DNA of 64,000 bases, taken from Escherichia coli (GTDB lineage Bacteria; Pseudomonadota; Gammaproteobacteria; Enterobacterales; Enterobacteriaceae). The stretch lies in assembly GCF_036507355.1 (NCBI RefSeq), contig NZ_AP027877.1; one strand, 5' to 3'. Of this stretch, positions 5,316-23,249 are shown in pieces; within the stretch, counting starts at the first letter, position 1, and each line of letters starts with the position of its first letter. The notes below the pieces were generated by a model. It was not told the origin of the DNA. It ran no database searches and saw only the letters and a list, made by a program, of their open reading frames with translations. The position numbers and the translations under genes were made by a program.

Positions 5316-6473
5316 TTGAAACGTAGTCTGCTTTTTTCTGCCGTGCTGTGTGCGGCGTCATTGACCTCCGTCCATGCGGCGCAGCCGATCACTGAACCGG
5401 AGTTTGCCTCTGATATTGTCGATCGTTATGCCGATCATATTTTTTACGGCAGCGGTGCCACGGGGATGGCGCTGGTTGTTATCGACGGTAACCAGCGCGT
5501 CTTTCGCAGTTATGGCGAAACGCGACCTGGTAATAACGTTCGCCCGCAGCTGGATTCGGTCGTGCGTATTGCTTCCCTCACCAAGCTAATGACCAGTGAG
5601 ATGCTGGTGAAATTGCTCGACCAGGGGACCGTGAAGTTAAACGATCCGCTAAGTAAATATGCTCCGCCAGGCGCACGCGTGCCAACCTACAATGGGACGC
5701 CCATTACGCTGGTCAATCTGGCAACCCATACCAGCGCCCTGCCCCGTGAACAGCCCGGTGGCGCGGCACATCGTCCGGTGTTTGTCTGGCCAACGCGCGA
5801 GCAACGCTGGAAATACCTTTCTACGGCGAAGCTGAAAGCCGCGCCAGGCAGTCAGGCGGCGTACTCTAACCTTGCGTTCGACCTGCTGGCAGATGCACTG
5901 GCGAATGCGTCCGGCAAGCCTTATACCCAGTTGTTTGAAGAGCAGATTACCCGTCCATTGGGGATGAAAGACACCACCTACACCCCCTCACCGGATCAGT
6001 GCCGCCGTTTAATGGTTGCTGAGCGCGGTGCCAGTCCGTGCAATAACACGCTGGCGGCAATTGGCAGCGGCGGCGTCTATTCCACGCCTGGCGATATGAT
6101 GCGCTGGATGCAGCAGTATTTGTCATCTGATTTTTATCAGCGCAGTAACCAGGCAGATCGCATGCAGACGTTGATTTATCAGCGCGCGCAGTTTACGAAA
6201 GTGATTGGCATGGATGTCCCCGGCAAAGCGGATGCGCTTGGTTTAGGCTGGGTATATATGGCCCCGAAAGAGGGTCGTCCGGGGATTATTCAGAAGACAG
6301 GTGGTGGTGGCGGTTTCATTACCTATATGGCGATGATCCCGCAGAAGAATATTGGCGCGTTTGTGGTGGTCACTCGTTCGCCGTTGACGCGCTTTAAAAA
6401 TATGAGCGATGGCATCAATGATCTGGTGACCGAGCTAAGCGGGAATAAACCGTTGGTTATCCCCGCGTCCTGA
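5316..6473 (+). CDS. ampH: Penicillin-binding protein AmpH (class C beta-lactamase-like DD-peptidase)
   Basis: 385-aa ORF with TTG start, signal peptide MKRSLLFSAVLCAASLTSVHA and serine-hydrolase motif ASLTK. Confidence 0.9.
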   Translation: MKRSLLFSAVLCAASLTSVHAAQPITEPEFASDIVDRYADHIFYGSGATGMALVVIDGNQRVFRSYGETRPGNNVRPQLDSVVRIASLTKLMTSEMLVKLLDQGTVKLNDPLSKYAPPGARVPTYNGTPITLVNLATHTSALPREQPGGAAHRPVFVWPTREQRWKYLSTAKLKAAPGSQAAYSNLAFDLLADALANASGKPYTQLFEEQITRPLGMKDTTYTPSPDQCRRLMVAERGASPCNNTLAAIGSGGVYSTPGDMMRWMQQYLSSDFYQRSNQADRMQTLIYQRAQFTKVIGMDVPGKADALGLGWVYMAPKEGRPGIIQKTGGGGGFITYMAMIPQKNIGAFVVVTRSPLTRFKNMSDGINDLVTELSGNKPLVIPAS

Positions 6474-6856: not shown

Positions 6857-6865
6857 CGTTTTTCA
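6857..6865. repeat. IS1 target-site duplication, left copy (CGTTTTTCA)
   Basis: 9 bp immediately left of the IS1 inverted repeat, identical to 7634..7642. Confidence 0.85.
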
Positions 6866-6920
6866 GGTGATGCTGCCAACTTACTGATTTAGTGTATGAT
6901 GGTGTTTTTGAGGTGCTCCA

Positions 6921-7196
6921 GTGGCTTCTGTTTCTATCAGCTGTCCCTCCTGTTCAGCTACTGACGGGGTGGTGCGTAACGGCAAAAGCACCGCCGGACA
7001 TCAGCGCTATCTCTGCTCTCACTGCCGTAAAACATGGCAACTGCAGTTCACTTACACCGCTTCTCAACCCGGTACGCACCAGAAAATCATTGATATGGCC
7101 ATGAATGGCGTTGGATGCCGGGCAACAGCCCGCATTATGGGCGTTGGCCTCAACACGATTTTACGTCACTTAAAAAACTCAGGCCGCAGTCGGTAA
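6921..7196 (+). CDS. insA: IS1 protein InsA
   Basis: 91-aa [43 protein letters not shown]... (zinc-finger/HTH InsA). Confidence 0.9.
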
Positions 7197-7618
7197 CCTC
7201 GCGCATACAGCCGGGCAGTGACGTCATCGTCTGCGCGGAAATGGACGAACAGTGGGGCTATGTCGGGGCTAAATCGCGCCAGCGCTGGCTGTTTTACGCG
7301 TATGACAGGCTCCGGAAGACGGTTGTTGCGCACGTATTCGGTGAACGCACGATGGCGACGCTGGGGCGTCTTATGAGCCTGCTGTCACCCTTTGACGTGG
7401 TGATATGGATGACGGATGGCTGGCCGCTGTATGAATCCCGCCTGAAGGGAAAGCTGCACGTAATCAGCAAGCGATATACGCAGCGAATTGAGCGGCATAA
7501 CCTGAATCTGAGGCAGCACCTGGCACGGCTGGGACGGAAGTCGCTGTCGTTCTCAAAATCGGTGGAGCTGCATGACAAAGTCATCGGGCATTATCTGAAC
7601 ATAAAACACTATCAATAA
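7115..7618 (+). CDS. insB: IS1 InsB reading frame (transposase made as InsAB' by -1 frameshift)
   Basis: 167-aa -1-frame ORF overlapping the insA 3' end; slippery A6C motif TTAAAAAACTC at about 7171-7180. Confidence 0.85.
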
Positions 7619-7633
7619 GTTGGAGTCATTACC

Positions 7634-7642
7634 CGTTTTTCA
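7634..7642. repeat. IS1 target-site duplication, right copy (CGTTTTTCA)
   Basis: 9 bp immediately right of the IS1 end, identical to 6857..6865. Confidence 0.85.
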
Positions 7643-7821
7643 TTAAACCATCAGCCAGCCCCATAATATAAGGAGCCTGGGTAATACCGATAAGTACGTT
7701 TTCTTCTCTACGCAGAGAGATAACGCCCTCTAAAATAACGAAAGTATCTTCGCTATTGACATCACTGGAAAATATAACTTGCTTTTCATTATTAAACTCG
7801 AAGCGCGTACCGTATCTGGAC

Positions 7822-7939
<118 letters not shown>

Positions 7940-7961
7940 TATTTCTTCGGAGTGAAGAATA

Positions 7962-8132
<171 letters not shown>

Positions 8133-8150
8133 TGAATCGCCACGGATAAT

Positions 8151-8963
8151 CTAGACACTTCCGAGCCGTTGATAATACTGGTTTTCATATTCTGTCGGTG
8201 ACATCTGATCGCTGGAACCATGCCGACGCTTACTGTTATAAAACATTTCGATGTAATCAAAAATATCGCTGCGGGCTTCTTCCCGCGTTCCGTAGATCTT
8301 TTTCTTTATCCGTTCGCGTTTCAACAACTGGAAAAAGCTTTCTGCAACCGCATTATCATGGCAGTTACCGCGACGGCTCATGCTGCCATCCAGGCCGTGT
8401 GATTTCAGGAACGACTGCCACTCATGGCTTGTGTACTGACTGCCCTGATCCGAATGAACCAGCACCTGTTTTTGGGGATTACGGCGCCATACAGCCATCA
8501 GCAGTGCGTTCAGGACAATGTCCTTTGTCATCCGGGATTGCATGGACCAGCCGATAATTTTGCGTGAGAACAGATCAACAACCACGGCAAGATACAGCCA
8601 GCCTTCGTGGGTCCTGATGTAGGTTATGTCCGTTACCCAACGCTTATCCGGAGCATCCGGATTGAACTGTCGCTGGAGCCTGTTGGGCGACACGATACTG
8701 GCCTCGCCTTTACGTGCCCGCGGGCTCCGGTATCCGACCTGAGCCTTTATCCCGACACGTTTCATCAGTCGCCAGACTCTGTTCACTCCGCACTGTTGCC
8801 CGCTGTCCCGCAGATCCAGATGGATTTTGCGATAACCATAGACGCATCCCGATTCCAGCCAGAACTGTTTAATCTGCCCTGTCAGCCTCAGGTCTGCCTG
8901 ATGGCGTTGTGAATGCGGCTGCTGAAGCCAGGCGTAAAAACCACTGGGATGAACATCCAGCAC
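8151..8963 (-). CDS. IS3-family transposase OrfB (DDE integrase domain)
   Basis: 270-aa ORF with DDE-type motifs (...WVTDITYIRTHEGWLYLAVVVDLFSRKIIGW..., ...LVHSDQGSQYTS..., ...AVAESFFQLLKRE...). Confidence 0.9.
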   Translation of the reverse strand: MLDVHPSGFYAWLQQPHSQRHQADLRLTGQIKQFWLESGCVYGYRKIHLDLRDSGQQCGVNRVWRLMKRVGIKAQVGYRSPRARKGEASIVSPNRLQRQFNPDAPDKRWVTDITYIRTHEGWLYLAVVVDLFSRKIIGWSMQSRMTKDIVLNALLMAVWRRNPQKQVLVHSDQGSQYTSHEWQSFLKSHGLDGSMSRRGNCHDNAVAESFFQLLKRERIKKKIYGTREEARSDIFDYIEMFYNSKRRHGSSDQMSPTEYENQYYQRLGSV

Positions 8964-9019
8964 CCGACAGAGCAGGCGAACAGGCCAGCAACAGGTGTTG
9001 TCACGGATAAAGGCGTACC

Positions 9020-9304
9020 TCAGTCGGACAGCTTTGCGAAGTACGCCGCGGCTTTTTTTAATATGTCCCGTTCGTCGGTAACCCGCTTCAGCTCTTTCTG
9101 GAGACGGCGGATCTCGGCCTGAGCATCTGACTGTTCTTTATTAGCGGAAGAATCCGGACCGTACTTCTTTATCCAGGCGTAAAGGCTGTGGGTGGTGATA
9201 TCGAGACGTGTTGCAACGCTGGCAACAGAATAACCGCGATCAACAACCTGTTTGACTGCTTCAATTTTAAACTCTTCGGGATAACGCTTACCGCTCATGG
9301 GCAC
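9020..9304 (-). CDS. IS3-family OrfA (HTH/leucine-zipper protein)
   Basis: 94-aa ORF MPMSGKRYPEEFKIEAVKQVVDRGYSVASVATRLDITTHSLYAWIKKYG... Confidence 0.9.
   Translation of the reverse strand: MPMSGKRYPEEFKIEAVKQVVDRGYSVASVATRLDITTHSLYAWIKKYGPDSSANKEQSDAQAEIRRLQKELKRVTDERDILKKAAAYFAKLSD
9040..9062 (-). other. Probable programmed -1 ribosomal frameshift site of the IS3-family element
   Basis: An A7 run on the coding strand (T7 at 9053-9059 on +) sits in the 0 frame as ttA AAA AAA Gcc near the OrfA 3' end, as in IS3-family OrfAB frameshift windows. Confidence 0.6.
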
Positions 9305-9361
9305 CTCTCTTTAAGCCATCTTAAATGACTCTGAGGTGTCTGTTAAACCCGTGGCGATTCA

Positions 9362-9699
9362 CCATGAATCAGGGAGTTGCTGATGTTCAACTGGTTTGTT
9401 GTTCCATCAGTAAAGTCATGATTCAGGTAATATGTAGAGATAGCCCCGTTAACAGTGTCACCATTAAAGGTGGTATCGAAATCACCGTTTGTGTTGTTAT
9501 AGTAGACAAAGCCACTATAATTCACATAGTTACCATCTACAGTACCCGGTGCATCCATATTGCTCCAGTCAAGAGCAGTAGTTGGATTGTCGTAATAAGT
9601 CCAGGTGTCATAAGTAGTTGCATTAGCCTGAGAGGTGATAGCCAGAGTGCAAGCCAATGCTAATTGTGATACTACAAGTTTCTTTTTCCAGGAGTGCAT
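9362..9699 (-). pseudogene. 5' remnant of an autotransporter-like gene (yaiT-like), signal peptide and start of passenger
   Basis: ORF begins MHSWKKKLVVSQLALACTLAITSQANA (Sec signal) followed by a Tyr/Asn/Thr/Asp-rich segment; the frame runs into the IS terminal repeat and stops. Confidence 0.55.
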
Positions 9700-13756: not shown

Positions 13757-14719
13757 TTATTGCACGAAGCGCGAGGTAACGTACTGGCTGTAATCATTCG
13801 CTACAGCCGGGACCTTGCCCTGCTCTTTCAAAAACTGCGCGGTGTCGATGATCGCTTTGTTCACCGGTCCGGTCAGTTCTGCCGTTTGTTGCTGCGGCGT
13901 CAGATAGGTATTCCCCTTCACCAGCCCCGGAACGTCACCTTCAGGCACGCCGCTTAAACGCGCCAGTTTGCTGATGTTTTCCGGCTGTTTCAGCCACACG
14001 TCTGGGTTAGCAATGTACGGTTGCTGAGCATCGATGGCGCTTTTAGCGAACGCTTTCACGACCTCAGGATGTTTCTCGGCAAAATCTTTGCGCACCACCC
14101 AGACGTCCAGCGTTGGCGCGCCCCACTGTCCGACCTGTTCAGAATCGGTCAACACCTTGCCGTCTTTTTCCAGGGCGTTAACCGCCGGTGCCCAGACATA
14201 AGCACCATCAATATCTCCCCGCTGCCAGGCAGCGATAATCGCGGGCGGCTGCAGGTTCACAATCTCCACTTGCCCGGGTTTAATGCCCCAGTGTTTCAGC
14301 GCCGCCAGCAGGCTGTAGTGGGTGGTGGAGATAAATGGTACGGCGATGCGTTTGCCAATCAGATCTTCCGGTTTGCTGATAGTTTTCTTTACCACCAGCG
14401 CTTCGGAGTTACCCAGTTTTGACGCCAGCAAGAAGACTTCAATCGGCACCTGTTGGCTGGCTGCAACCGCTAACGGGCTGGAACCGAGGTTGCCGATTTG
14501 CACGTCGCCTGAAGCCAGCGCCCGCACGATGCTGGCTCCGCTGTCAAACTTACGCCAGTCCACGGTTGCTCCGCTTTCTTTAGCAAAGGTGTTGTCGGCC
14601 TGAGCCACTTTCGCCGGTTCGGCTGAGGTTTGATACGCCACGGTGACGTTCACCGCCTGCGCCTGAAAAGCGATGAATGCCAGTGCGGCAAGAAGAGTAT
14701 TACGCGATGAAATTGCCAT
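13757..14719 (-). CDS. tauA: Taurine ABC transporter periplasmic binding protein
   Basis: 320-aa ORF with signal peptide MAISSRNTLLAALAFIAFQAQA. Confidence 0.95.
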   Translation of the reverse strand: MAISSRNTLLAALAFIAFQAQAVNVTVAYQTSAEPAKVAQADNTFAKESGATVDWRKFDSGASIVRALASGDVQIGNLGSSPLAVAASQQVPIEVFLLASKLGNSEALVVKKTISKPEDLIGKRIAVPFISTTHYSLLAALKHWGIKPGQVEIVNLQPPAIIAAWQRGDIDGAYVWAPAVNALEKDGKVLTDSEQVGQWGAPTLDVWVVRKDFAEKHPEVVKAFAKSAIDAQQPYIANPDVWLKQPENISKLARLSGVPEGDVPGLVKGNTYLTPQQQTAELTGPVNKAIIDTAQFLKEQGKVPAVANDYSQYVTSRFVQ

Positions 14720-15021
14720 GATTGTCTGCTCCCCTGTCTTGTTATGGGAGCAGTATTTCGTTGCGGGTCAGTTTGATAAAGGAATTAAAAGGTCTTGTTA
14801 AGAACAAAGCGTTTTTAGAAAAAAATCGGCAATGGTTAGCGAGTTTGCGCATTTTGCGGTTTTGGCGAACGTATCCCGCCGGTTCACAAGCCAGATAATA
14901 TGTGCGCGCTCCGGCAAATTATTGCCATTTTGTTACATCCATTCCATATCTGTCGCTGGTTGATTGCCAGCGCCGCGCCGTGATGCATGATAGGAGAATT
15001 AGATAATAAGAGAAGAAAAGT

Positions 15022-15651
15022 ATGATTCGGGTAGTGCTGGTGGATGACCATGTGGTGGTGCGCTCTGGCTTCGCACAATTACTCTCTCTGGAAGACGATC
15101 TGGAGGTCATTGGTCAGTACAGTAGTGCCGCGCAGGCATGGTCGGCATTAATCCGTGATGACGTCAATGTTGCCGTCATTGATATTGCCATGCCGGACGA
15201 AAACGGCCTCAGTTTGCTTAAGCGCCTGCGTGCACAAAAACCGCAATTTCGCGCCATTATTCTTAGCATTTATGACGCGCCAACCTTTGTGCAAAGCGCG
15301 CTGGATGCCGGTGCCAGCGGGTATTTAACCAAACGCTGTGGGCCGGAAGAGTTAGTGCAGGCGGTGCGCTCGGTCGGGCTGGGCGGGCATTATCTCTGTG
15401 CCGATGCGATTCGGGCTTTACGCGGCGGCGGGCAATCCGCCCAGGCGCTGGAAATTCTCACCCCGCGAGAACGTGAAGTGTTTGATTTACTTGTCAAAGG
15501 AGACAGCGTTAAAGAGATCGCCTTTAAACTCGAACTCAGTCATAAAACGGTACATGTGCATCGCGCCAATGTGCTGGGAAAACTGAACTGCCATAGCACC
15601 ATTGAACTGGTACATTTTGCGCTCGACCACCATCTGCTGGCGGGGCATTAA
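15022..15651 (+). CDS. NarL/FixJ-family response regulator, UhpA paralogue
   Basis: 209-aa ORF MIRVVLVDDHVVVRSGFAQLL... (receiver domain) with a C-terminal LuxR-type HTH (...VKEIAFKLELSHKTVHVHRANVLGKL...); similar to UhpA as recalled but distinct. Confidence 0.85.
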   Translation: MIRVVLVDDHVVVRSGFAQLLSLEDDLEVIGQYSSAAQAWSALIRDDVNVAVIDIAMPDENGLSLLKRLRAQKPQFRAIILSIYDAPTFVQSALDAGASGYLTKRCGPEELVQAVRSVGLGGHYLCADAIRALRGGGQSAQALEILTPREREVFDLLVKGDSVKEIAFKLELSHKTVHVHRANVLGKLNCHSTIELVHFALDHHLLAGH

Positions 15652-17192
15652 TGTCGCGCAATCTTCGTCATTGGGTGATTTCGCTGTTTATTGTGCTGGC
15701 CTGGGGAACCGGCTGGCTGATGCTGTGGACGCTCAGCTTTTATCTGACCAATAACGGTCAACAGGCGGTGTTGTTTCTCCCGCAGGGAGTTTATCTCGCC
15801 CTTGTTATTTTGCTCTCTCGCCGCTACTGGCCTGCGTTGGTGCTCCCCCCTTTGCTGATGATGTTCTGGCTCCATAGTGAACAGCTATTGAACGGTTATC
15901 TCATGCTGGCAACGCCGATTATTAGCCTGTTTCCTGTCCTCCTTGCGCAAAACTTCTGGCACCGTTTTCCACTTTACTGGCAGCGTCTGACGTTGCTGTT
16001 AGCCACTGTCACGGCAGCTTCATTGTTGAATACCGCCCTGCTCTCCCCTTTTATGTCAGGCCCAATAATGCTGCCGGGTTTGACCTCATTTACCGGCGGC
16101 GTATTACTGACGCCGTTTGTCTATCTTATCTTTGAGTTTCTGCGCCAGCAGCATCGCTACCAGCTCCTGGGACTCGATACGCATAATCCCCCCTTGCGTA
16201 CCTCTTTAATCATCTGGTGTAGCCTGTTTTTTATTATTGGTATCGGCACTCAGATGGTGCTGTCACCTGAAATTGAACGTCTGCTGTTGATCGTGGTCTT
16301 TTTGCCCAATGTGGTGATGGCGTGGAAATTTGGCTGGCAAGGTGGCGTACTCTCCGGGCTTTTGGGCAGCATGATGATCACCATCGCCCGCCAGATTGGC
16401 GTGGGCTTTAGTAACCTGGTGGAGCTGGAGATTTTCCTCGCGACCCAGGCCTTGCTGGGAATTGGCCTGGGCATTGCCATCAGTCGCCAGCAACATCTGG
16501 CGCTAAACCTGCACCATTACCGACAACGGCTGGAGGCCGAGCTGGCAGCGCGGCGGGCATTGGCGGAAAAGCTGATCCACACCGAGGAGGACACGCGAAA
16601 AAACCTGGCGCGAGAGCTGCACGACGAAATCGGTCAGAACATCACCGCCATTCAGATCCAGTCGCAACTGGTGAAGCGGGCGCGTGATCCGGCGCAAATT
16701 CAATCCGCAGCCAGCCAAATCAATGAGCTCGCCCGCCGCATTCATCTCTCCACCCGCCAATTGCTGCGCCAGTTGCGGCCTCCCGCGCTTGATGAACTGA
16801 CATTTCGCGAAGCGTTGTTGCATCTGATTAATGAATTTGCCTTTAGTGAACGCGGCATTCATTGCCAGTTTGCCTATCAACTGAACTCCACACCAGAAAA
16901 CGAAACGGTGCGCTTTACCTTGTATCGGTTATTACAGGAGTTGCTCAATAACGTCTGTAAACACGCCGAAGCCAGCGAAGTGACGATTATCCTGCGCCAG
17001 CAGGGAGAGGTATTGCATCTGGAAGTCAGCGACAACGGTGTGGGGATCGCCAGCGGGAAAATGGCCGGATTTGGCATTCAGGGGATGCGTGAGCGCGTCA
17101 GCGCCCTGGGCGGCGACTTAACGCTCGAAAAACAGCACGGCACGCGGGTAATTGTTAACTTGCCCACATTTTTGCAACAAATCGCCGGATAA
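15651..17192 (+). CDS. Sensor histidine kinase, UhpB paralogue (polytopic N-terminal domain, HisKA_3, HATPase)
   Basis: 513-aa ORF; about 8 hydrophobic segments in the N-terminal half, H-box ELHDEIGQ, G-box DNGVGI; start overlaps the regulator stop (TAATG). Confidence 0.85.
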   Translation: MSRNLRHWVISLFIVLAWGTGWLMLWTLSFYLTNNGQQAVLFLPQGVYLALVILLSRRYWPALVLPPLLMMFWLHSEQLLNGYLMLATPIISLFPVLLAQNFWHRFPLYWQRLTLLLATVTAASLLNTALLSPFMSGPIMLPGLTSFTGGVLLTPFVYLIFEFLRQQHRYQLLGLDTHNPPLRTSLIIWCSLFFIIGIGTQMVLSPEIERLLLIVVFLPNVVMAWKFGWQGGVLSGLLGSMMITIARQIGVGFSNLVELEIFLATQALLGIGLGIAISRQQHLALNLHHYRQRLEAELAARRALAEKLIHTEEDTRKNLARELHDEIGQNITAIQIQSQLVKRARDPAQIQSAASQINELARRIHLSTRQLLRQLRPPALDELTFREALLHLINEFAFSERGIHCQFAYQLNSTPENETVRFTLYRLLQELLNNVCKHAEASEVTIILRQQGEVLHLEVSDNGVGIASGKMAGFGIQGMRERVSALGGDLTLEKQHGTRVIVNLPTFLQQIAG

Positions 17193-17264
17193 CCAGGAAA
17201 AAGTCTTAGGTATCCCGGATTTTCTCTCATCCCCTTTCACTTTCATTTTCATATAGTCAGCAAC

Positions 17265-18581
17265 ATGGAGACAACCATGCACGCGCGTTCAGCGAGAGAA
17301 ATTAATCAATGCTACCGGACATTACGTCCGCGATTGCTGATGTGCATGATTATTGGCTACGCCGCATTTTATCTGACGCGAAAAAGCGTGAATTACGTCC
17401 TTCCGGCGCTACAAACCGACCTCGGACTGGATAAAGGCGACATTGGCCTGCTGGGTTCGCTGTTTTATCTCAGCTACGGATTGTCGAAATTTACCGCCGG
17501 ACTGTGGCATGACAGCCACGGACAACGCGGTTTTATGGGCGTCGGCTTGTTCGCCACCGGGTTATTGAACGTGGTGTTTGCCTTTGGCGAATCACTTACG
17601 CTTCTGCTTGTGGTCTGGACACTGAACGGTTTTTTTCAGGGCTGGGGATGGCCACCGTGTGCCCGCTTGCTGACCCACTGGTACTCACGCAATGAGCGCG
17701 GTTTCTGGTGGGGCTGCTGGAATATGTCGATCAACATTGGCGGAGCGATTATTCCGCTGATTAGCGCCTTTGCCGCCCACTGGTGGGGCTGGCAGGCCGC
17801 GATGCTGACACCGGGGATAATCAGCATGGCATTAGGGATCTGGTTAACGCTACAACTCAAAGGCACGCCCCAGGAAGAGGGATTACCGACAGTTGGTCAC
17901 TGGCGTCACGATCCGCTGGAGTTACGTCAGGAACAACAAAGTCCGCCGATGGGGCTGTGGCAAATGTTGCGCACCACCATGCTGCAAAATCCGCTGATCT
18001 GGCTACTGGGCGTCTCTTATGTACTGGTTTATGTGATCCGGATTGCGCTTAACGACTGGGGCAATATCTGGCTGACGGAAAGCCACGGTGTCAACCTGCT
18101 CAGCGCCAACGCCACGGTAATGCTGTTTGAAGTGGGCGGCTTACTCGGCGCGTTATTTGCCGGATGGGGATCGGATTTGCTGTTTAGCGGGCAACGAGCG
18201 CCAATGATTTTGCTGTTCACGTTGGGGTTGATGGTGTCAGTCGCCGCACTGTGGCTGGCACCGGTTCATCACTACGCTCTGCTGGCAGTGTGCTTTTTTA
18301 CCGTGGGCTTTTTCGTCTTTGGCCCACAAATGCTGATTGGACTTGCGGCGGTGGAGTGTGGGCACAAAGCTGCGGCGGGTTCAATCACCGGATTTCTCGG
18401 CCTGTTCGCTTACCTTGGCGCGGCGCTGGCAGGCTGGCCGCTGTCGCTGGTCATCGAACGCTACGGCTGGCCGGGAATGTTCAGTTTACTCTCGGTCGCC
18501 GCAGTACTTATGGGTTTACTGCTGATGCCGTTACTGATGGCGGGCATCACCACCACTCACGCTCGAAGGATAAAACAATGA
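17265..18581 (+). CDS. MFS protein, UhpC/UhpT-like (sugar-phosphate sensor or transporter)
   Basis: 438-aa 12-TM-like ORF adjacent to the UhpA/UhpB-like pair. Confidence 0.8.
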   Translation: METTMHARSAREINQCYRTLRPRLLMCMIIGYAAFYLTRKSVNYVLPALQTDLGLDKGDIGLLGSLFYLSYGLSKFTAGLWHDSHGQRGFMGVGLFATGLLNVVFAFGESLTLLLVVWTLNGFFQGWGWPPCARLLTHWYSRNERGFWWGCWNMSINIGGAIIPLISAFAAHWWGWQAAMLTPGIISMALGIWLTLQLKGTPQEEGLPTVGHWRHDPLELRQEQQSPPMGLWQMLRTTMLQNPLIWLLGVSYVLVYVIRIALNDWGNIWLTESHGVNLLSANATVMLFEVGGLLGALFAGWGSDLLFSGQRAPMILLFTLGLMVSVAALWLAPVHHYALLAVCFFTVGFFVFGPQMLIGLAAVECGHKAAAGSITGFLGLFAYLGAALAGWPLSLVIERYGWPGMFSLLSVAAVLMGLLLMPLLMAGITTTHARRIKQ

Positions 18582-19609
18582 AAATGACCTTTACCTCTAC
18601 TCTGATTGCTTCTGCCGTTGCGCTGGCGACTTTAACGGGTGCCGCGCAGGCAAAAGGCCGGCTGGTGGTCTATTGCAGCGCCACCAATGAAATGTGTGAG
18701 GCCGAAACCAAAGCGTTTGGCGAGAAATATGATGTAAAAACCTCGTTTATCCGCAACGGTTCCGGAAGCACCCTGGCAAAAGTCGATGCTGAAAAGAAAA
18801 ACCCCCAGGCTGACGTCTGGTACGGCGGCACTTTAGACCCGCAATCGCAGGCTGGCGAGATGGGCCTGCTACAGGCGTATAAATCCCCTAACCTTGAGCA
18901 GATCATGGAGAAATTCCGCGATCCGGCAAAAGTGAAAGGGAATCTGTCCTCTGCCGTTTATGTGGGGATCCTCGGTTTTGGCGTAAACACCGATCGTCTG
19001 AAAGAGAAAAACCTGCCGGTGCCGAAGTGCTGGAAAGATCTCACCAAACCGGAATATAAAGGCGAAATTCAAATTGCCGATCCGCAAAGTTCCGGTACTG
19101 CCTACACCGCCCTGGCTACTTTTGCGCAGCTGTGGGGGGAAGATCAGGCCTTTGATTATCTAAAACAACTGAACGCCAACGTCTCTCAGTACACCAAATC
19201 AGGCATAGCCCCGGCACGTAACGCCGCCCGTGGCGAAACGGCGATTGGTATTGGCTTCCTGCATGACTACTCGCTGGAAAAAGAACAGGGCGCGCCGCTG
19301 GAGTTGATTTCCCCGTGTGAAGGTACAGGCTACGAAATTGGCGGCGTCAGCATTCTGAAAGGCGCGCGCAACCTCGACAACGCCAAACTGTTTGTGGACT
19401 GGGTATTATCAAAAGAAGCGCAGGAACTGGCATGGAAGAAAGGGAAGTCTTATCAGATCCTGACCAATACCACCGCCGAAACGTCGCCAAACTCACTGAA
19501 GCTCGACGACCTGAAATTAATCAACTACGACATGGACAAATACGGTTCCACGGATGTTCGTAAGGCATTGATTAATAAATGGGTTAGCGAAGTAAAAATG
19601 GGTAAATAA
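18578..19609 (+). CDS. afuA: ABC transporter periplasmic binding protein, AfuA/FbpA-like
   Basis: 343 aa from MKMTFTSTLIASAVALATLTGAAQA (signal peptide); the track ORF 18251..19609 is an upstream alternate-start extension. Confidence 0.85.
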   Translation: MKMTFTSTLIASAVALATLTGAAQAKGRLVVYCSATNEMCEAETKAFGEKYDVKTSFIRNGSGSTLAKVDAEKKNPQADVWYGGTLDPQSQAGEMGLLQAYKSPNLEQIMEKFRDPAKVKGNLSSAVYVGILGFGVNTDRLKEKNLPVPKCWKDLTKPEYKGEIQIADPQSSGTAYTALATFAQLWGEDQAFDYLKQLNANVSQYTKSGIAPARNAARGETAIGIGFLHDYSLEKEQGAPLELISPCEGTGYEIGGVSILKGARNLDNAKLFVDWVLSKEAQELAWKKGKSYQILTNTTAETSPNSLKLDDLKLINYDMDKYGSTDVRKALINKWVSEVKMGK

Positions 19610-19677
19610 ACCCGCATTAGGCGCATTTGCCGGGTGCAGCGCAGACGCCTGCCCCGGCCAACCATACCGGAACTGCT

Positions 19678-21756
19678 ATGTCACAGACACTTGCACTCCA
19701 TCCCGTGAAAAAGCGGGATGCGATTTTCCTTTGGGTTTTGCTGGGCTGGCTGGCATTTATACTGTTGCCGAGCTGGAGCCTCGATTATGGCCTGCTGGAG
19801 TCCACGAGTGATGAGATCCTCGAGGCTTATGGCTGGTCGCATTTTAATATCAGCTGGCTGTGGTATTTGTTACCGAGTCTGTTGCTGGTTCGCCCGTTTC
19901 GTGAGGCCACACGCGAACAGCGTAGTCGTCATTATTTTGATGCCGGCTGGGCATTGCTCTGTATGGCGTTTATCGTCATCAGCGCCACCGTGGTTGGACG
20001 CGGTTTAGGCTACGCCGCCATCGTGCTGTTTGTCGAACTAGGCGCGATTATGACGCTGGCCTTAACCCGCCTCGAATGGCTGGGTGGCGACCGCTTCGTG
20101 ATCGGCTCACTGATTGCGATTGTGGCGCTGATTGGCATTTTTATCGTCTGGCCGAGCATCGCCATTTTTATCCCGATGTTCACCAACGACGCGGGAGAGT
20201 TCGCCCCGCTGGCGTTTATGACCGTGCTCTCGCAGGCACATATTGTTCAGGTGATCGTCAACTCTATCGTCTTGTCGATAGCGGTGGGGATAGGCTGTAC
20301 TTTCTTCGGCCTGGTGCTGGCGATTTATACCACGCGCATCGCTAAACGCAGCGCCATTATTGGTCGCATCTTTTCCATTTTGCCCATCGTTACGCCACCG
20401 TTTGTGGTCGGCTTAGGCGTGACGCTCATGATGGGGCGCTCCGGCTATGTTACGGAATTTATGGTGGAGTGGTTTGGGCTGACCAACACCAACTGGCTGT
20501 ACGGTTTTACCGGGATCTGGCTGGCACAGGTTCTGGCATTCACGCCAATGGCATTTATGATCCTCGACGGGGCCATTAAAACCATTCATCCCTCGCTGGA
20601 AGAGGCCTCCTACACCCTGCGCGCCAGCCGCTGGCAAACCTTTAACGGCGTGTTTGTGCCGTTGTTGAAGCCCGCACTCGCCAATGCCTTTTTAATCGTC
20701 GTGGTACAGTCACTGGCTGATTTCAGTAACCCGCTGGTACTTGGCGGTAACTTCGACGTACTGGCGACGCAAATTTACTTCTATATTACCGGCTCGCAGC
20801 TGGATTATCAGGCCGCCAGCACCCTTGGCGCTTTCCTGCTGCTGTTCTCGCTGCTGGTGTTCTGCATCCAGTATATGTGGATTGGTAAACGCTCTTACGT
20901 CACGGTTTCCGGCAAATCCTACCGTGGCGACGTCCAGCCGCTACCGGTCACCCTGGTGTGGAGCGTGGTCGCCATACTTGCGATATGGATTGCCTTTAAC
21001 GCCCTGCTCTACGGCAGCATTTTCTACGGCAGCTTCACGGTGAACTGGGGCGTGGACTACACCCTGACGCTGGATAACTTTATCAAGCTATTTGGTCAGG
21101 GAATGAGCGACGGCGCCTGGCCTTCACTGCTGGATACCCTGCTCTACGCCGGGATTGCCGCTCCCATTACCGCTATCTTTGGCCTGCTCATCGCCTGGGT
21201 GGTGGTGCGTCAACAATTCAAAGGCAAAAAGACCATCGAGTTCACCACCATGCTGTGCTTTGCCGTACCGGGTACGGTGGCGGGCGTTTCGTATATTCTT
21301 GCCTTTAACAGCGCTCCGGTTTATCTCACCGGAACGGCGGCAATTGTGATTATCTCGATGGTGATGCGTAACGTTCCGGTGGGTATTCGCGCCGGGATTG
21401 CGGGTCTGGGGCAGATCGACAAATCGCTGGATGAAGCCTCACTCAGCCTGCGCGCGGGTTCACTGCGAACCATTACGCACATTTTACTGCCGCTGCTGCG
21501 CCCGGCCATTCTCTCGGCCCTGATCTACAGCTTTGTGCGGGCCATCACGACGGTCAGCGCCATCGTCTTTCTCGTCACGCCGGACACCCGCGTGGCAACC
21601 GCCTACATTCTTAACCGCGTTGAAGACGGCGAATATGGCGTAGCCATCGCCTATGGTTCGATTCTGATCGTGGTGATGCTGGCGATTATTTTCCTCTTTG
21701 ACTGGCTGATCGGAGAAGCTCGTATCTCCCGTTCTAAAGCCAAAAACCAGGCGTAA
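19678..21756 (+). CDS. afuB: ABC transporter permease, AfuB/FbpB-like (duplicated transmembrane domain)
   Basis: About 692 aa from [24 protein letters not shown]...; large polytopic permease. Confidence 0.85.
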
Positions 21757-22814
21757 TGGAGCGCACTATGAGTCAGAAAAATTTTGTTGAACTGCGCAAC
21801 GTCACTAAACGATTCGGCAGTAATACGGTTATCGACAATATCAATCTCACCATTCCACAAGGGCAAATGGTGACGCTGCTCGGTCCTTCCGGCTGTGGCA
21901 AAACCACCATTTTGCGTCTGGTTGCCGGGCTGGAAAAACCGAGCGAAGGGCAAATTTTTATTGATGGCGAAGATGTCACGCATCGTTCCATTCAACAGCG
22001 CGATATCTGCATGGTGTTTCAGTCATACGCTCTGTTCCCGCATATGTCGCTGGGTGAAAACGTTGGCTACGGGCTGAAGATGCTTGGCGTGTCGCGTAGC
22101 GAAGTGAAACAGCGGGTGAAGGAGGCGCTGGCAATGGTGGATCTGGAAGGCTTCGAGGACCGCTATGTCGATCAGATTTCCGGTGGTCAGCAACAGCGTG
22201 TGGCACTGGCCCGCGCGTTGATCCTCAAGCCAAAGGTGCTGCTGTTTGATGAGCCGTTAAGTAACCTCGATGCCAACCTGCGCCGCAGTATGCGCGATAA
22301 GATCCGCGAGCTGCAAAAGCAGTTTAATATCACGTCGCTCTACGTCACTCACGATCAAAGTGAAGCTTTCGCGGTGTCCGACACTGTGCTGGTGATGAAT
22401 AAAGGTCACATCATGCAGATTGGCTCACCGCAGGATCTCTATCGTCAGCCAGCCTCCCGATTTATGGCAAGTTTTATGGGCGACGCCAACCTGTTCCCGG
22501 CGAACTTTAGCGAAGAGTATGTCGATATCTACGGTTATCGCCTGCCGCGCGCGGCGCATTTCCCGGCGCAAGGTAGCGGCACCGTCGGCGTTCGCCCGGA
22601 AGCCATCACCTTAAGCAATCACGGCGAAGAGAGTCAGCGTTGTGTTATTCGCCATGTCGCCTACATGGGGCCGCAGTACGAAGTGACCGTAGAGTGGCAT
22701 GGACAGGAGATTTTATTACAAGTAAACGCCACCCGTTTACAGCCCGATATTGGTGAGCACTATTACCTCGAAATCCATCCTTACGGGATGTTTGTTTTAG
22801 CGGATGCGGCATAA
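21756..22814 (+). CDS. afuC: ABC transporter ATP-binding protein, AfuC/FbpC-like
   Basis: 352-aa ORF with Walker [10 protein letters not shown], signature [14 protein letters not shown] and Walker B LLFDEP; the true start may be MSQKNF at 21768. Confidence 0.9.
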
Positions 22815-22896
22815 AAATAGCACATAAACGGTCCCCATCTGTCTTGAGGGACCGTTCACCTGGTTAGGCTTCGGACAACAATTATTCTCCAGTGTT

Positions 22897-22949
22897 ATAT
22901 ACTATAGGGGGGTATGCATTGACATATAGCATACCCCCCTATAGTATAT
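22897..22949 (+). promoter_or_regulatory. frmRAB promoter/operator: perfect 21-bp inverted repeat with G6/C6 tracts
   Basis: atatactataggggggtatgc (22897-22917) and its exact reverse complement (22929-22949) flank an 11-bp spacer attgacatata containing TTGACA; TATAGT/TAGTAT -10-like hexamers in the right arm; 25 bp upstream of the frmR ATG. Confidence 0.7.
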
Positions 22950-22973: not shown

Positions 22974-23249
22974 ATGCCCAGTACTCCGGAAGAGAAGAAA
23001 AAGGTCCTTACTCGAGTTCGTCGTATTCGGGGGCAGATTGATGCTCTGGAACGGTCGCTGGAGGGTGATGCCGAATGCCGTGCCGTACTCCAACAGATCG
23101 CTGCCGTTCGGGGCGCGGCTAATGGGCTGATGGCAGAAGTGCTTGAAAGCCATATCCGGGAAACGTTTGACCGAAATGACTGCTACAGCCGCGAAGTCAG
23201 CCAATCCGTTGACGACACTATTGAACTGGTTCGTGCCTATCTTAAATAG
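22974..23249 (+). CDS. frmR: Formaldehyde-responsive repressor FrmR (CsoR/RcnR family)
   Basis: 91 aa from [48 protein letters not shown]... Confidence 0.9.

Follow-up and report, generated by a model that had tools for sequence, protein, structure and literature searches.

Several described systems resemble the locus analyzed here. The nearest is O-island 20 (OI-20) of Escherichia coli O157:H7, composed of fusR (Z0463), fusK (Z0462), z0461 and afuABC (Z0460-Z0458). Pacheco et al. (2012), as cited in PMC11644481 and PMC6199705, report L-fucose as the signal of FusK in O157:H7 and FusR as a repressor, rather than an activator, of z0461, the fuc genes and ler. The AfuABC transporter has been characterized in two orthologues: that of Actinobacillus pleuropneumoniae allows an E. 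coli uhpT mutant to grow on G6P and F6P again, that of Citrobacter rodentium (>83% identical to EHEC) acts likewise, and only these two orthologues are on record as binding and transporting G6P, F6P and S7P (PMC4546632). In the same study AfuA was found to bind sugar phosphates and not iron (Sit et al.). At uhpT of E. coli K-12 the CAP position is -103, on the upstream side of the UhpA site (PMC5352689). A system for the uptake of hexose-6-phosphate, VCA0682-VCA0687, has also been reported in Vibrio cholerae (Moisi et al. 2013).

In the window (the whole 64,000-nucleotide stretch of E. coli DNA that was analyzed), positions 15022-22814 were filled by six co-oriented plus-strand ORFs, in agreement with the RefSeq annotation of near-identical genomes, and flanked by tauA on the minus strand (13757-14719) and by frmR (about 22974-23249). 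The features, with the basis of each assignment, were as follows.

14858..22881, no strand: island extent (BLAST against an E. coli genome with an empty tauA-frmR site and against K-12)
15022..15651, plus strand: fusR (Z0463/ECs_0418), NarL/UhpA-family response regulator, 209 aa (NCBIfam, comparison with K-12 UhpA)
15651..17192, plus strand: fusK (Z0462/ECs_0417), MASE1 membrane histidine kinase, 513 aa (Pfam, NCBIfam)
17277..18581, plus strand: z0461 (ECs_0416), MFS protein of UhpC type, organophosphate:phosphate antiporter family, 434 aa (NCBIfam)
18578..19609, plus strand: afuA (ECs_0415), predicted periplasmic sugar-phosphate binding protein, 343 aa (PDB matches, ligand residues)
19678..21756, plus strand: afuB (ECs_0414), fused double-domain ABC permease, 692 aa (profile matches)
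21768..22814, plus strand: afuC (ECs_0413), ABC ATPase, 348 aa (NCBIfam PRK11432)

The region is OI-20, fusR-fusK-z0461-afuA-afuB-afuC, an already described island whose gene organization is not new. It shared 98.93% DNA identity over 8601 bp with ECs_0418-ECs_0413 of O157:H7 Sakai at the same tauA-frmR site, with the same genes in the same order; the strain background differs, and function is in no way distinct. AfuA and Z0461 matched their Sakai counterparts at every residue, and the remaining four proteins differed at 1-6 residues (FusR two, FusK four, AfuB six and AfuC one). The best genome matches were non-O157 isolates, e.g. 14EC033 at 99.8%. Of 5426 complete E. coli genomes, 519 carried the module, which is not limited to O157:H7. 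Homology to the window ended at 14857 (empty-site genome) or 14757 (K-12) and restarted at 22882. Neither an integrase, nor an IS element, nor flanking direct repeats were found at the island ends, and GC content (52-57%) was not anomalous. K-12 MG1655 carries yaiO, yaiX::IS2A, yaiP and yaiS between frmR and tauA, and has elsewhere an afuB fragment and afuC beside IS remnants (86% DNA identity, 94% AfuC identity). An earlier note, made from the letters of the window, had given this arrangement correctly and had not identified the locus as OI-20 of EHEC. Its reading of six co-oriented genes and of their families was likewise confirmed by the ORFs, the RefSeq annotation and the NCBIfam and Pfam matches, the NCBIfam family E-values (3e-57 to 6e-211) being far beyond chance.

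Conservation was assessed in the best 80 of 348 AfuA-encoding species genomes, each with an AfuA at least 85% identical. All six genes and their order were kept in 73 of these 80 other Enterobacterales species, and the remaining seven loci were cut by contig ends and consistent with the order as far as they reached. Vibrio carries the same six-gene order, VCA0682-VCA0687 having the architecture of the window, with protein identities of 62% for the regulator, 42% for the kinase, 53% for the MFS protein and 67-76% for the Afu proteins; a 112-bp spacer separates the MFS and binding-protein genes in Vibrio, whereas they overlap in the window. This deep conservation of the six-gene unit across Enterobacterales and Vibrio is new here. 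A FrmA query gave no match downstream of afuC in any other genus examined. In Pasteurellaceae, the one locus examined (Gallibacterium) had afuABC with no Uhp-like trio, and a gene for a class B acid phosphatase came next, so that the coupling of sensor and transporter is not universal.

The first three genes were compared with K-12 UhpABC. The best NCBIfam match of FusR was UhpA (193.8 bits, cut-off 258), with 48% identity to the K-12 protein and identical D54 and recognition helix KTVHVHRAN, and that of FusK was UhpB (381.1 bits, cut-off 408; 35% identity). Both scores lie under the equivalog cut-offs, so FusR and FusK do not classify as orthologues of UhpA and UhpB. FusK comprised MASE1 (11-281), HisKA_3 (316-380) and HATPase_c (423-505) Pfam domains, and its phospho-acceptor H324 is equivalent to H313 of UhpB; the architecture and residues of the UhpABC phosphorelay (MASE1-HisKA_3-HATPase with a phospho-acceptor His, and a REC Asp54 with a GerE-type HTH) are thus present in FusK and FusR. 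Z0461 scored 587.7 bits with the NCBIfam UhpC subfamily, over the cut-off of 564, and was 53% identical to UhpC vs. 29% to UhpT. It keeps arginines equivalent to R46 and R275 of UhpT, which we take to be phosphate-binding. Judged by sequence comparison, FusR, FusK and Z0461 are paralogues of UhpA, UhpB and UhpC (35-53% identity), and the true uhpABCT is located elsewhere in E. coli. Homology comparison therefore bore out the assignment, in the earlier note, of the first three genes as Uhp-like (the closest paralogues of UhpA, UhpB and UhpC) and of the last three as an AfuABC-type importer.

In PGAP and in that note the start of z0461 was placed at 17265, giving 438 aa. The start is likely ATG 17277, as in Sakai, because a GGAG at 17267-17270 is conserved across genera and ATG 17265 is not. 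Of the three start-stop overlaps previously proposed, those of fusR/fusK (TAATG, 15649-15653) and z0461/afuA (ATGA, 18578-18581) were found, and that of afuB/afuC was not: the annotated afuC ATG 21768, preceded by GGAG at 21758-21761, leaves an 11-nt gap after afuB, and the two genes overlap only with an afuC start at ATG 21756.

The operon layout, a binding protein with a fused double permease and an ATPase, is that by which Sit et al. (2015) define AfuABC, and the fused AfuB permease and AfuC ATPase are as in A. pleuropneumoniae AfuABC (PDB 4R72-4R75). AfuA, with a signal peptide ending AQA at residue 25, matched A. pleuropneumoniae AfuA (PDB 4R72-4R75) with E = 1.5e-169 and 8X1A with E = 1.7e-173, and was about 80% identical to the crystallized A. 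pleuropneumoniae protein. Its sugar-coordinating triad H229, D230 and E253 (H205, D206 and E229) and phosphate-contacting S62 and T174 (S37 and T150), as defined in PMC4546632, were all kept. In AfuB, whose ATG at 19678 was conserved in the alignment, two BPD_transp_1-type stretches were found (199-399 and 485-674), and AfuC scored 699.6 bits with NCBIfam PRK11432 (cut-off 496), a family bearing the legacy name "ferric ABC transporter ATP-binding protein". From these matches the window AfuABC is most likely an ATP-driven importer that depends on a binding protein and takes up cyclic hexose and heptose phosphates (G6P, F6P, S7P); a sugar-phosphate substrate, previously offered as a hypothesis, is supported by the experiments on the orthologues and by the conserved ligand residues.

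Two predicted folds were associated with the transporter genes.

19629..19658, plus strand: GC-rich intercistronic hairpin, afuA-afuB (predicted fold)
22830..22854, plus strand: hairpin GGTCCCC...GGGACC 3' of afuC, possible terminator without a T-run (predicted fold)

The stability of the first was not significant vs. shuffles (z = -0.98), and other genera have a stem-loop of differing sequence at the same place; it may serve differential expression or mRNA stability. The second was weak (-17 to -18.5 kcal/mol), was not significant vs. shuffles (z = -1.70) and was absent from the terminator scan listing. Neither promoters nor terminators were enriched over shuffles in the scan of the window.

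Upstream of fusR and of z0461, the following candidate regulatory features were found.

14964..14991, plus strand: putative fusR-fusK promoter, TTGCCA, 16-nt spacer, CATGAT (consensus scan)
17153..17168, plus strand: CRP-like box TGTTAACTTGCCCACA, 8/10 matches to TGTGA-N6-TCACA, within fusK codons 501-506
17193..17210, plus strand: inverted repeat CCAGGAAAAAGTCTTAGG, putative FusR operator, at the first bases past the fusK stop (phylogenetic footprint)
17225..17257, plus strand: putative z0461-afuABC core promoter (cross-genus conserved blocks)

The TTGCCA and -10 block of the putative fusR-fusK promoter were at least 95% conserved in 39 alignable sequences (the window and 38 other-genus loci). 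The CRP-like box had at most two mismatches in 79 of 81 loci, and third-position conservation of fusK codons 500-510 was 0.95-1.00 vs. a gene mean of 0.69, these being the top-ranked windows of the gene; synonymous sites in the region of the box are constrained. The inverted repeat, footprinted in 79 sequences (the window and 78 other-species loci), had the family consensus CYAGGAA-N3-TTCCTRG (CCAGGAA-N3-TTCCTGG type), a pattern with 0.03 matches expected by chance in the window. It was a perfect palindrome in 15 loci, Vibrio among them, and its right half was degenerate in E. coli and the closest genera (2 mismatches). Box and repeat were a constant 40.5 bp apart in 80 of 81 loci, among them Vibrio, where VCA0682-VCA0687 carries a CRP-like box and the palindrome CTAGGAA-N3-TTCCTAG upstream of the MFS gene, as in the window. 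The putative core promoter has TCTCATCC in a poor -35 region (17225-17232) and a -10 TATAGT (17252-17257), and the predicted leader, from the putative TSS, would be only about 13 nt.

The center of the CRP-like box lies at -103.5 from the putative +1, equal to the CAP site of K-12 uhpT (PMC5352689). In sequence layout the putative z0461-afuABC promoter is further like that of uhpT, where CAP sits in the 3' end of the upstream gene, at about -103, followed by an inverted repeat of CCAGG/CCTGG half-sites and a poor -35. The half-sites are spaced as CCAGG-N7-CCTGG in the window vs. CCAGG-N5-CCTGG at uhpT, and the putative regulated promoter precedes the MFS gene in the window, the one of K-12 Uhp being downstream of it. 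The conserved composite of CRP-like box and inverted repeat before z0461-afuABC, with its uhpT-like layout, is new here. What the data show are the gene identities, the near-identity with OI-20, the kept ligand residues, the synteny and the composite DNA element; binding of the repeat by FusR, a part for CRP, the position of the TSS, whether control is by activation or by repression, and the nature of the signal are inferences. In published work ECs0416 and afuA rise jointly at glucose exhaustion, afuA 37-fold (PMC2241611), as expected of a CRP-dependent operon.

The reading that we favor, at a probability of roughly 0.7, is that FusR, FusK and Z0461 constitute a paralogous UhpA/UhpB/UhpC-type sensor joined to the AfuABC importer, the whole being a catabolite-sensitive operon for hexose-phosphate uptake under the control of that sensor. 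Gene order (regulator, kinase, MFS sensor, transporter) is that of K-12 UhpABC-UhpT, with an ATP-driven ABC system in the window vs. the UhpT antiporter in K-12, so that afuABC would replace uhpT in a Uhp-type circuit. Z0461 (UhpC-like MFS) and FusK (MASE1 kinase) would detect an external sugar derivative, FusK H324 would phosphorylate FusR D54, and FusR-P would bind the inverted repeat at 17193-17210. Jointly with CRP-cAMP at the 17153-17168 box, 40.5 bp upstream of the repeat, FusR-P would then control the promoter with a weak -35 and a -10 at 17252-17257. From that putative promoter z0461 and afuABC would be transcribed as a single unit, because z0461 and afuA overlap by ATGA. The conserved synteny and operator support the notion, first raised in the earlier note, of a signal-responsive uptake system. 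No report of induction of z0461 or afuABC by hexose phosphates in E. coli was found in literature searches; the proposed signal is put forward as a hypothesis.

The principal alternative is the L-fucose/FusKR model of Pacheco et al. (2012), as summarized in PMC11644481, PMC6199705 and PMC4810492, in which FusK is a direct L-fucose sensor, FusR represses ler, z0461 and the fuc genes, Z0461 aids fucose import, and afuABC is a neighboring nutrient transporter not specifically controlled by FusKR. As an account of the locus we consider it rather unlikely. The loss of fucose-dependent LEE repression in a fusKR mutant (2026 study, PMC12976359) agrees with it; however, the six-gene unit and the operator before z0461-afuABC are kept in plant-, insect- and water-associated genera. 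The antiporter-type (organophosphate:phosphate) scaffold of Z0461, with arginines aligned to UhpT R46 and R275, would moreover be odd for a neutral deoxy-sugar. Because z0461 and afuA overlap, any control of z0461 extends to afuABC, and in Uhp systems the kinase sees its ligand only with its MFS partner (PMC4546632). A stronger form of the hexose-phosphate reading can be advanced tentatively, at somewhat less than even odds: the trio would primarily sense hexose phosphates and not fucose, and its conserved direct target would be the z0461-afuABC promoter, reached through a composite CRP and FusR operator whose spacing has stayed fixed from Vibrio to E. coli. The fucose/LEE role would then be a lineage-specific overlay or indirect, and the island an old Enterobacteriaceae module beside tauA, not a recent EHEC acquisition.

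Import of another organophosphate, either pyridoxal-5-phosphate (P5PA type) or 2-aminoethylphosphonate (PhnS2 type), is very improbable. The P5PA structure 6WCE was the third-best PDB match of AfuA (E = 1.5e-109), but P5PA has Ala at the D206 and E229 positions (FVHAY, GYALGG), where the window AfuA is AfuA-like (FLHDY, GYEIGG; D230, E253). Similarly, PhnS2 and PhnU2 were the best NCBIfam matches for AfuA and AfuB, but scored far under their cut-offs (238 vs. 393 and 249 vs. 593, respectively). Both the PLP-binding and the phosphonate readings were rejected on the AfuA residues and the NCBIfam score cut-offs.

Ferric-iron uptake of the FbpABC/HitABC type, the legacy reading suggested by the RefSeq name of afuC ("fbpC, ferric ABC transporter ATP-binding protein"), by the over-cut-off NCBIfam equivalog of that name and by the weak homology of AfuA to HitA and FbpA (E about 1e-12), is effectively refuted: the FbpA-type iron-coordinating residues that the earlier note held would speak against its own reading were looked for and are absent, the Tyr-Tyr pair of HitA (INNYYWY) aligning to IGFLHDY and the Glu of its YTEE to Gly (YGGT), with the N-terminal His outside the HitA alignment, and AfuA binds sugar phosphates instead (Sit et al., PMC4546632).

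The results correct a persistent "ferric transporter" annotation. The distribution, conservation and operator described here offer a concrete, testable route by which the published reading of the sensor as a fucose sensor can be reconciled with a Uhp-like, sugar-phosphate one. AfuA is published to be required for C. rodentium to pass from host to host, and FusKR is published to tune EHEC virulence; the locus is relevant to gut colonization.

The stretch between tauA and frmR (15022-22814, + strand) contained six long, co-oriented ORFs, and near-identical RefSeq genomes carried the same gene set (response regulator, MASE1 sensor kinase, uhpC-type MFS protein, ABC substrate-binding protein, ABC permease and 'fbpC' ATPase), in agreement with the six genes between these flanks claimed in the earlier note. 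The island was 98.93% identical to ECs_0418-ECs_0413 of O157:H7 Sakai, with no differences in AfuA and the MFS protein and 1-6 residue differences in each of the other four proteins. Judged by sequence, it is O-island 20, whose genes are fusR (Z0463), fusK (Z0462), z0461 and afuABC (PMC4546632; PMC6199705). Among 5426 complete E. coli genomes the island had 519 carriers, with O157:H7 and O145:H28 strains as well as isolates of patient, fish and waste origin among them; a ~94% allele was present in 68 genomes, and the best matches to the window island were non-O157 strains.

Among the start/stop overlaps previously proposed, those of fusR/fusK (TAATG) and z0461/afuA (ATGA) were present, while afuB and afuC would overlap only if afuC started at the upstream ATG 21756, a start that PGAP and the earlier note permit. 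Conserved GGAG motifs and the cross-genus alignment favored the starts annotated in Sakai for two genes. For afuC, the annotated ATG 21768, preceded by a conserved GGAG (21758-21761), is the more likely start. For z0461, placed at ATG 17265 both by PGAP and by the earlier note, ATG 17277 is most likely, since GGAG 17267-17270 was kept across genera and ATG 17265 was not.

Compared with an empty-site genome, the island extended over 14858-22881; its base composition was ordinary, and neither mobility genes nor flanking repeats were found at the island when the window was compared with empty-site and K-12 genomes. As the earlier note had stated for K-12, MG1655 carries yaiO, yaiX::IS2A, yaiP and yaiS at the tauA-frmR site, and afu remnants elsewhere (an afuB fragment and afuC amid IS remnants). 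Some E. coli genomes had neither the island nor the yaiO-yaiS cassette. In one of them, AVS0343 (locus L004, 1659-1733), a 75-bp filler of unrelated sequence lay between the tauA-side and frmR-side junctions, and this filler is a third allele of the variable site. A near-perfect 53-bp palindrome just upstream of frmR (22897-22949; TATATACTATAGGGGGGTATGC...GCATACCCCCCTATAGTATA), overlapping the region's best promoter-like site, is part of the core sequence found also in K-12 and in genomes with an empty site; it presumably serves as promoter/operator of frmR. Elsewhere in the window, ~6865-9619 aligned with Sakai only piecemeal or not at all; judged by its place relative to the genes that flank it in strain 14EC033, it is the counterpart of the autotransporter adhesin gene ehaB (yaiT), and the window strain seems to have another allele of the passenger domain.

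The best family matches of the regulator, kinase and MFS protein were UhpA, UhpB and UhpC, with identities to the K-12 proteins of 48%, 35% and 53%, respectively (29% for the MFS protein vs. UhpT). Regulator and kinase scored under the UhpA/UhpB equivalog cut-offs, and the MFS protein over that of the UhpC subfamily. FusK comprised MASE1, HisKA_3 and HATPase_c domains, and features conserved with Uhp included D54, the phospho-acceptor His (FusK H324 = UhpB H313) and the recognition helix KTVHVHRAN. The MFS protein also retained the arginines aligned with UhpT R46 and R275, both essential for transport. The trio is thus a paralogue of UhpABC and not the Uhp system itself, which sits elsewhere in E. 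coli.

AfuA matched the crystallised Actinobacillus pleuropneumoniae AfuA (4R72-4R75; E = 1.5e-169), as well as the Vibrio orthologue 8X1A. In the former, S37 and T150 contact the phosphate, and H205, D206 and E229 are essential sugar contacts (Sit et al., PMC4546632); S62, T174, H229, D230 and E253 of the window AfuA align with them. That AfuA binds G6P at nanomolar level, an E. coli uhpT mutant was rescued on G6P and F6P, and Citrobacter rodentium AfuABC, >83% identical to the EHEC proteins, has the same function (PMC4546632). FbpA-type iron ligands, which the earlier note had considered incompatible with its reading, were absent: in the alignment with HitA, other residues take the place of its Tyr-Tyr pair and its ligand Glu, which argues against a ferric-binding protein. 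Identity with the PLP-binding paralogue P5PA is disfavored by retention of an Asp and a Glu missing in P5PA, and phosphonate transporter models scored far under their cut-offs. AfuC (21768-22814) passes the NCBIfam equivalog 'ferric ABC transporter ATP-binding protein' (PRK11432), hence its RefSeq label fbpC; this naming goes back to AfuABC having first been mis-assigned as an iron transporter, and it is carried into every genome with the island.

With each species represented by a single genome, a scan detected an AfuA relative in 348 genomes, and the best 80 of these were retrieved (Citrobacter, Klebsiella, Raoultella, Enterobacter, Serratia, Buttiauxella, Rahnella, Erwinia, Pantoea, Yersinia, Brenneria and others). 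All six genes occurred in identical order and strand in 73 of these 80 best loci, and the remaining seven, ending with the stored sequence, agreed over their extent. A Vibrio cholerae/metoecus locus had the same six-gene order. In contrast, the sole Pasteurellaceae locus examined, from Gallibacterium anatis (L089, 8001-13118), carried afuABC without Uhp-like genes; a co-oriented gene for a class B acid phosphatase comes next, as would suit an organism using organophosphates that are imported or periplasmic. The divergent tauA-fusR adjacency of E. coli (window 13757-15022) recurred in 30/80 loci of other Enterobacterales species (L007-L063; Citrobacter, Klebsiella, Raoultella, Enterobacter, Lelliottia, Leclercia and others), and frmRAB was not found downstream of afuC in loci of other genera, so that, at its tauA end, the insertion site appears to be old.

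When the fusK-z0461 junctions of the window and of 78 loci from other species were aligned, four conserved blocks emerged, listed here together with a CRP-like box in the end of fusK.

Sequence elements at the fusK-z0461 junction
17153-17168, last fusK codons: CRP-like box, TGTTAACTTGCCCACA, matching the CRP consensus at 8/10 positions
17193-17210, directly 3' of the fusK stop: inverted repeat (putative FusR operator), CCAGGAAAAAGTCTTAGG, consensus CYAGGAA-N3-TTCCTRG
-35 region block: conserved TCTCATCC
-10: TATAGT, conserved in the junction alignment
Ribosome-binding site: GGAG, conserved in the junction alignment

Third positions of fusK codons 500-510 were 95-100% conserved, the top stretch of the gene (gene-wide mean 69%). 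The centre-to-centre distance from box to repeat was 40.5 bp in 80/81 loci, including Vibrio, where the kinase stop codon lies elsewhere relative to both elements. If the putative TSS is set 7 nt downstream of the -10, the box is centred at -103.5 and the repeat at -62.5. Measured likewise, the K-12 uhpT promoter has inverted repeats at -65 and -53 and a CAP site centred at -103.5, in line with the published placement of CAP at -103, farther upstream than the UhpA site (PMC5352689). FusR binding to the repeat, a role for CRP and the position of the TSS are inferred. The joint rise of ECs0416 and afuA (the latter 37-fold) in Sakai at glucose exhaustion (PMC2241611) fits CRP control and co-transcription. 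The KTVHVHRAN helix of FusR is identical to that of UhpA (uhpA, 5637-6227 of the K-12 uhp region L002), and the putative operators of both regulators have CCAGG/CCTGG half-sites, spaced N7 vs. N5. Island-bearing strains have uhpABCT as well, so the two circuits could conceivably influence each other. In Entomohabitans teleogrylli (L053, 16540-16556), a second perfect CYAGGAA-N3-TTCCTRG palindrome ~2 kb downstream of afuC could mark another regulator target.

An ancestral circuit for the uptake of sugar phosphates is suggested by conservation of module and operator in genera from plants and the environment, by the organophosphate-antiporter type of Z0461 and by the overlap of z0461 with afuA. 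Published accounts of EHEC conflict with this reading: there, FusK is said to sense L-fucose, FusR to repress ler, z0461 and the fuc genes, and z0461 to help in importing fucose (PMC11644481, PMC6199705, PMC4810492); fucose-dependent LEE repression again required fusKR in a 2026 study (PMC12976359). None of the above evidence disproves a fucose response in EHEC. Review statements that FusKR is confined to O157:H7 or derived from Enterococcus faecalis (PMC11644481, PMC4810492) do not fit the multi-genus synteny, the 519/5426 E. coli carriers or the tauA-fusR adjacency in 30 other Enterobacteriaceae species, and review statements of a recent acquisition are likewise at odds with that adjacency in 30/80 loci.

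The Uhp-like sensor and AfuABC importer read from the sequence thus largely stand; the published signal of the island sensor is a different one, L-fucose, so that a sugar-phosphate signal is still a hypothesis for E. coli. The island was already known, and the six-gene observation is confirmed with minor start-codon corrections; useful additions are the conserved operator of CRP-like box plus repeat and the wide reach of the six-gene synteny.
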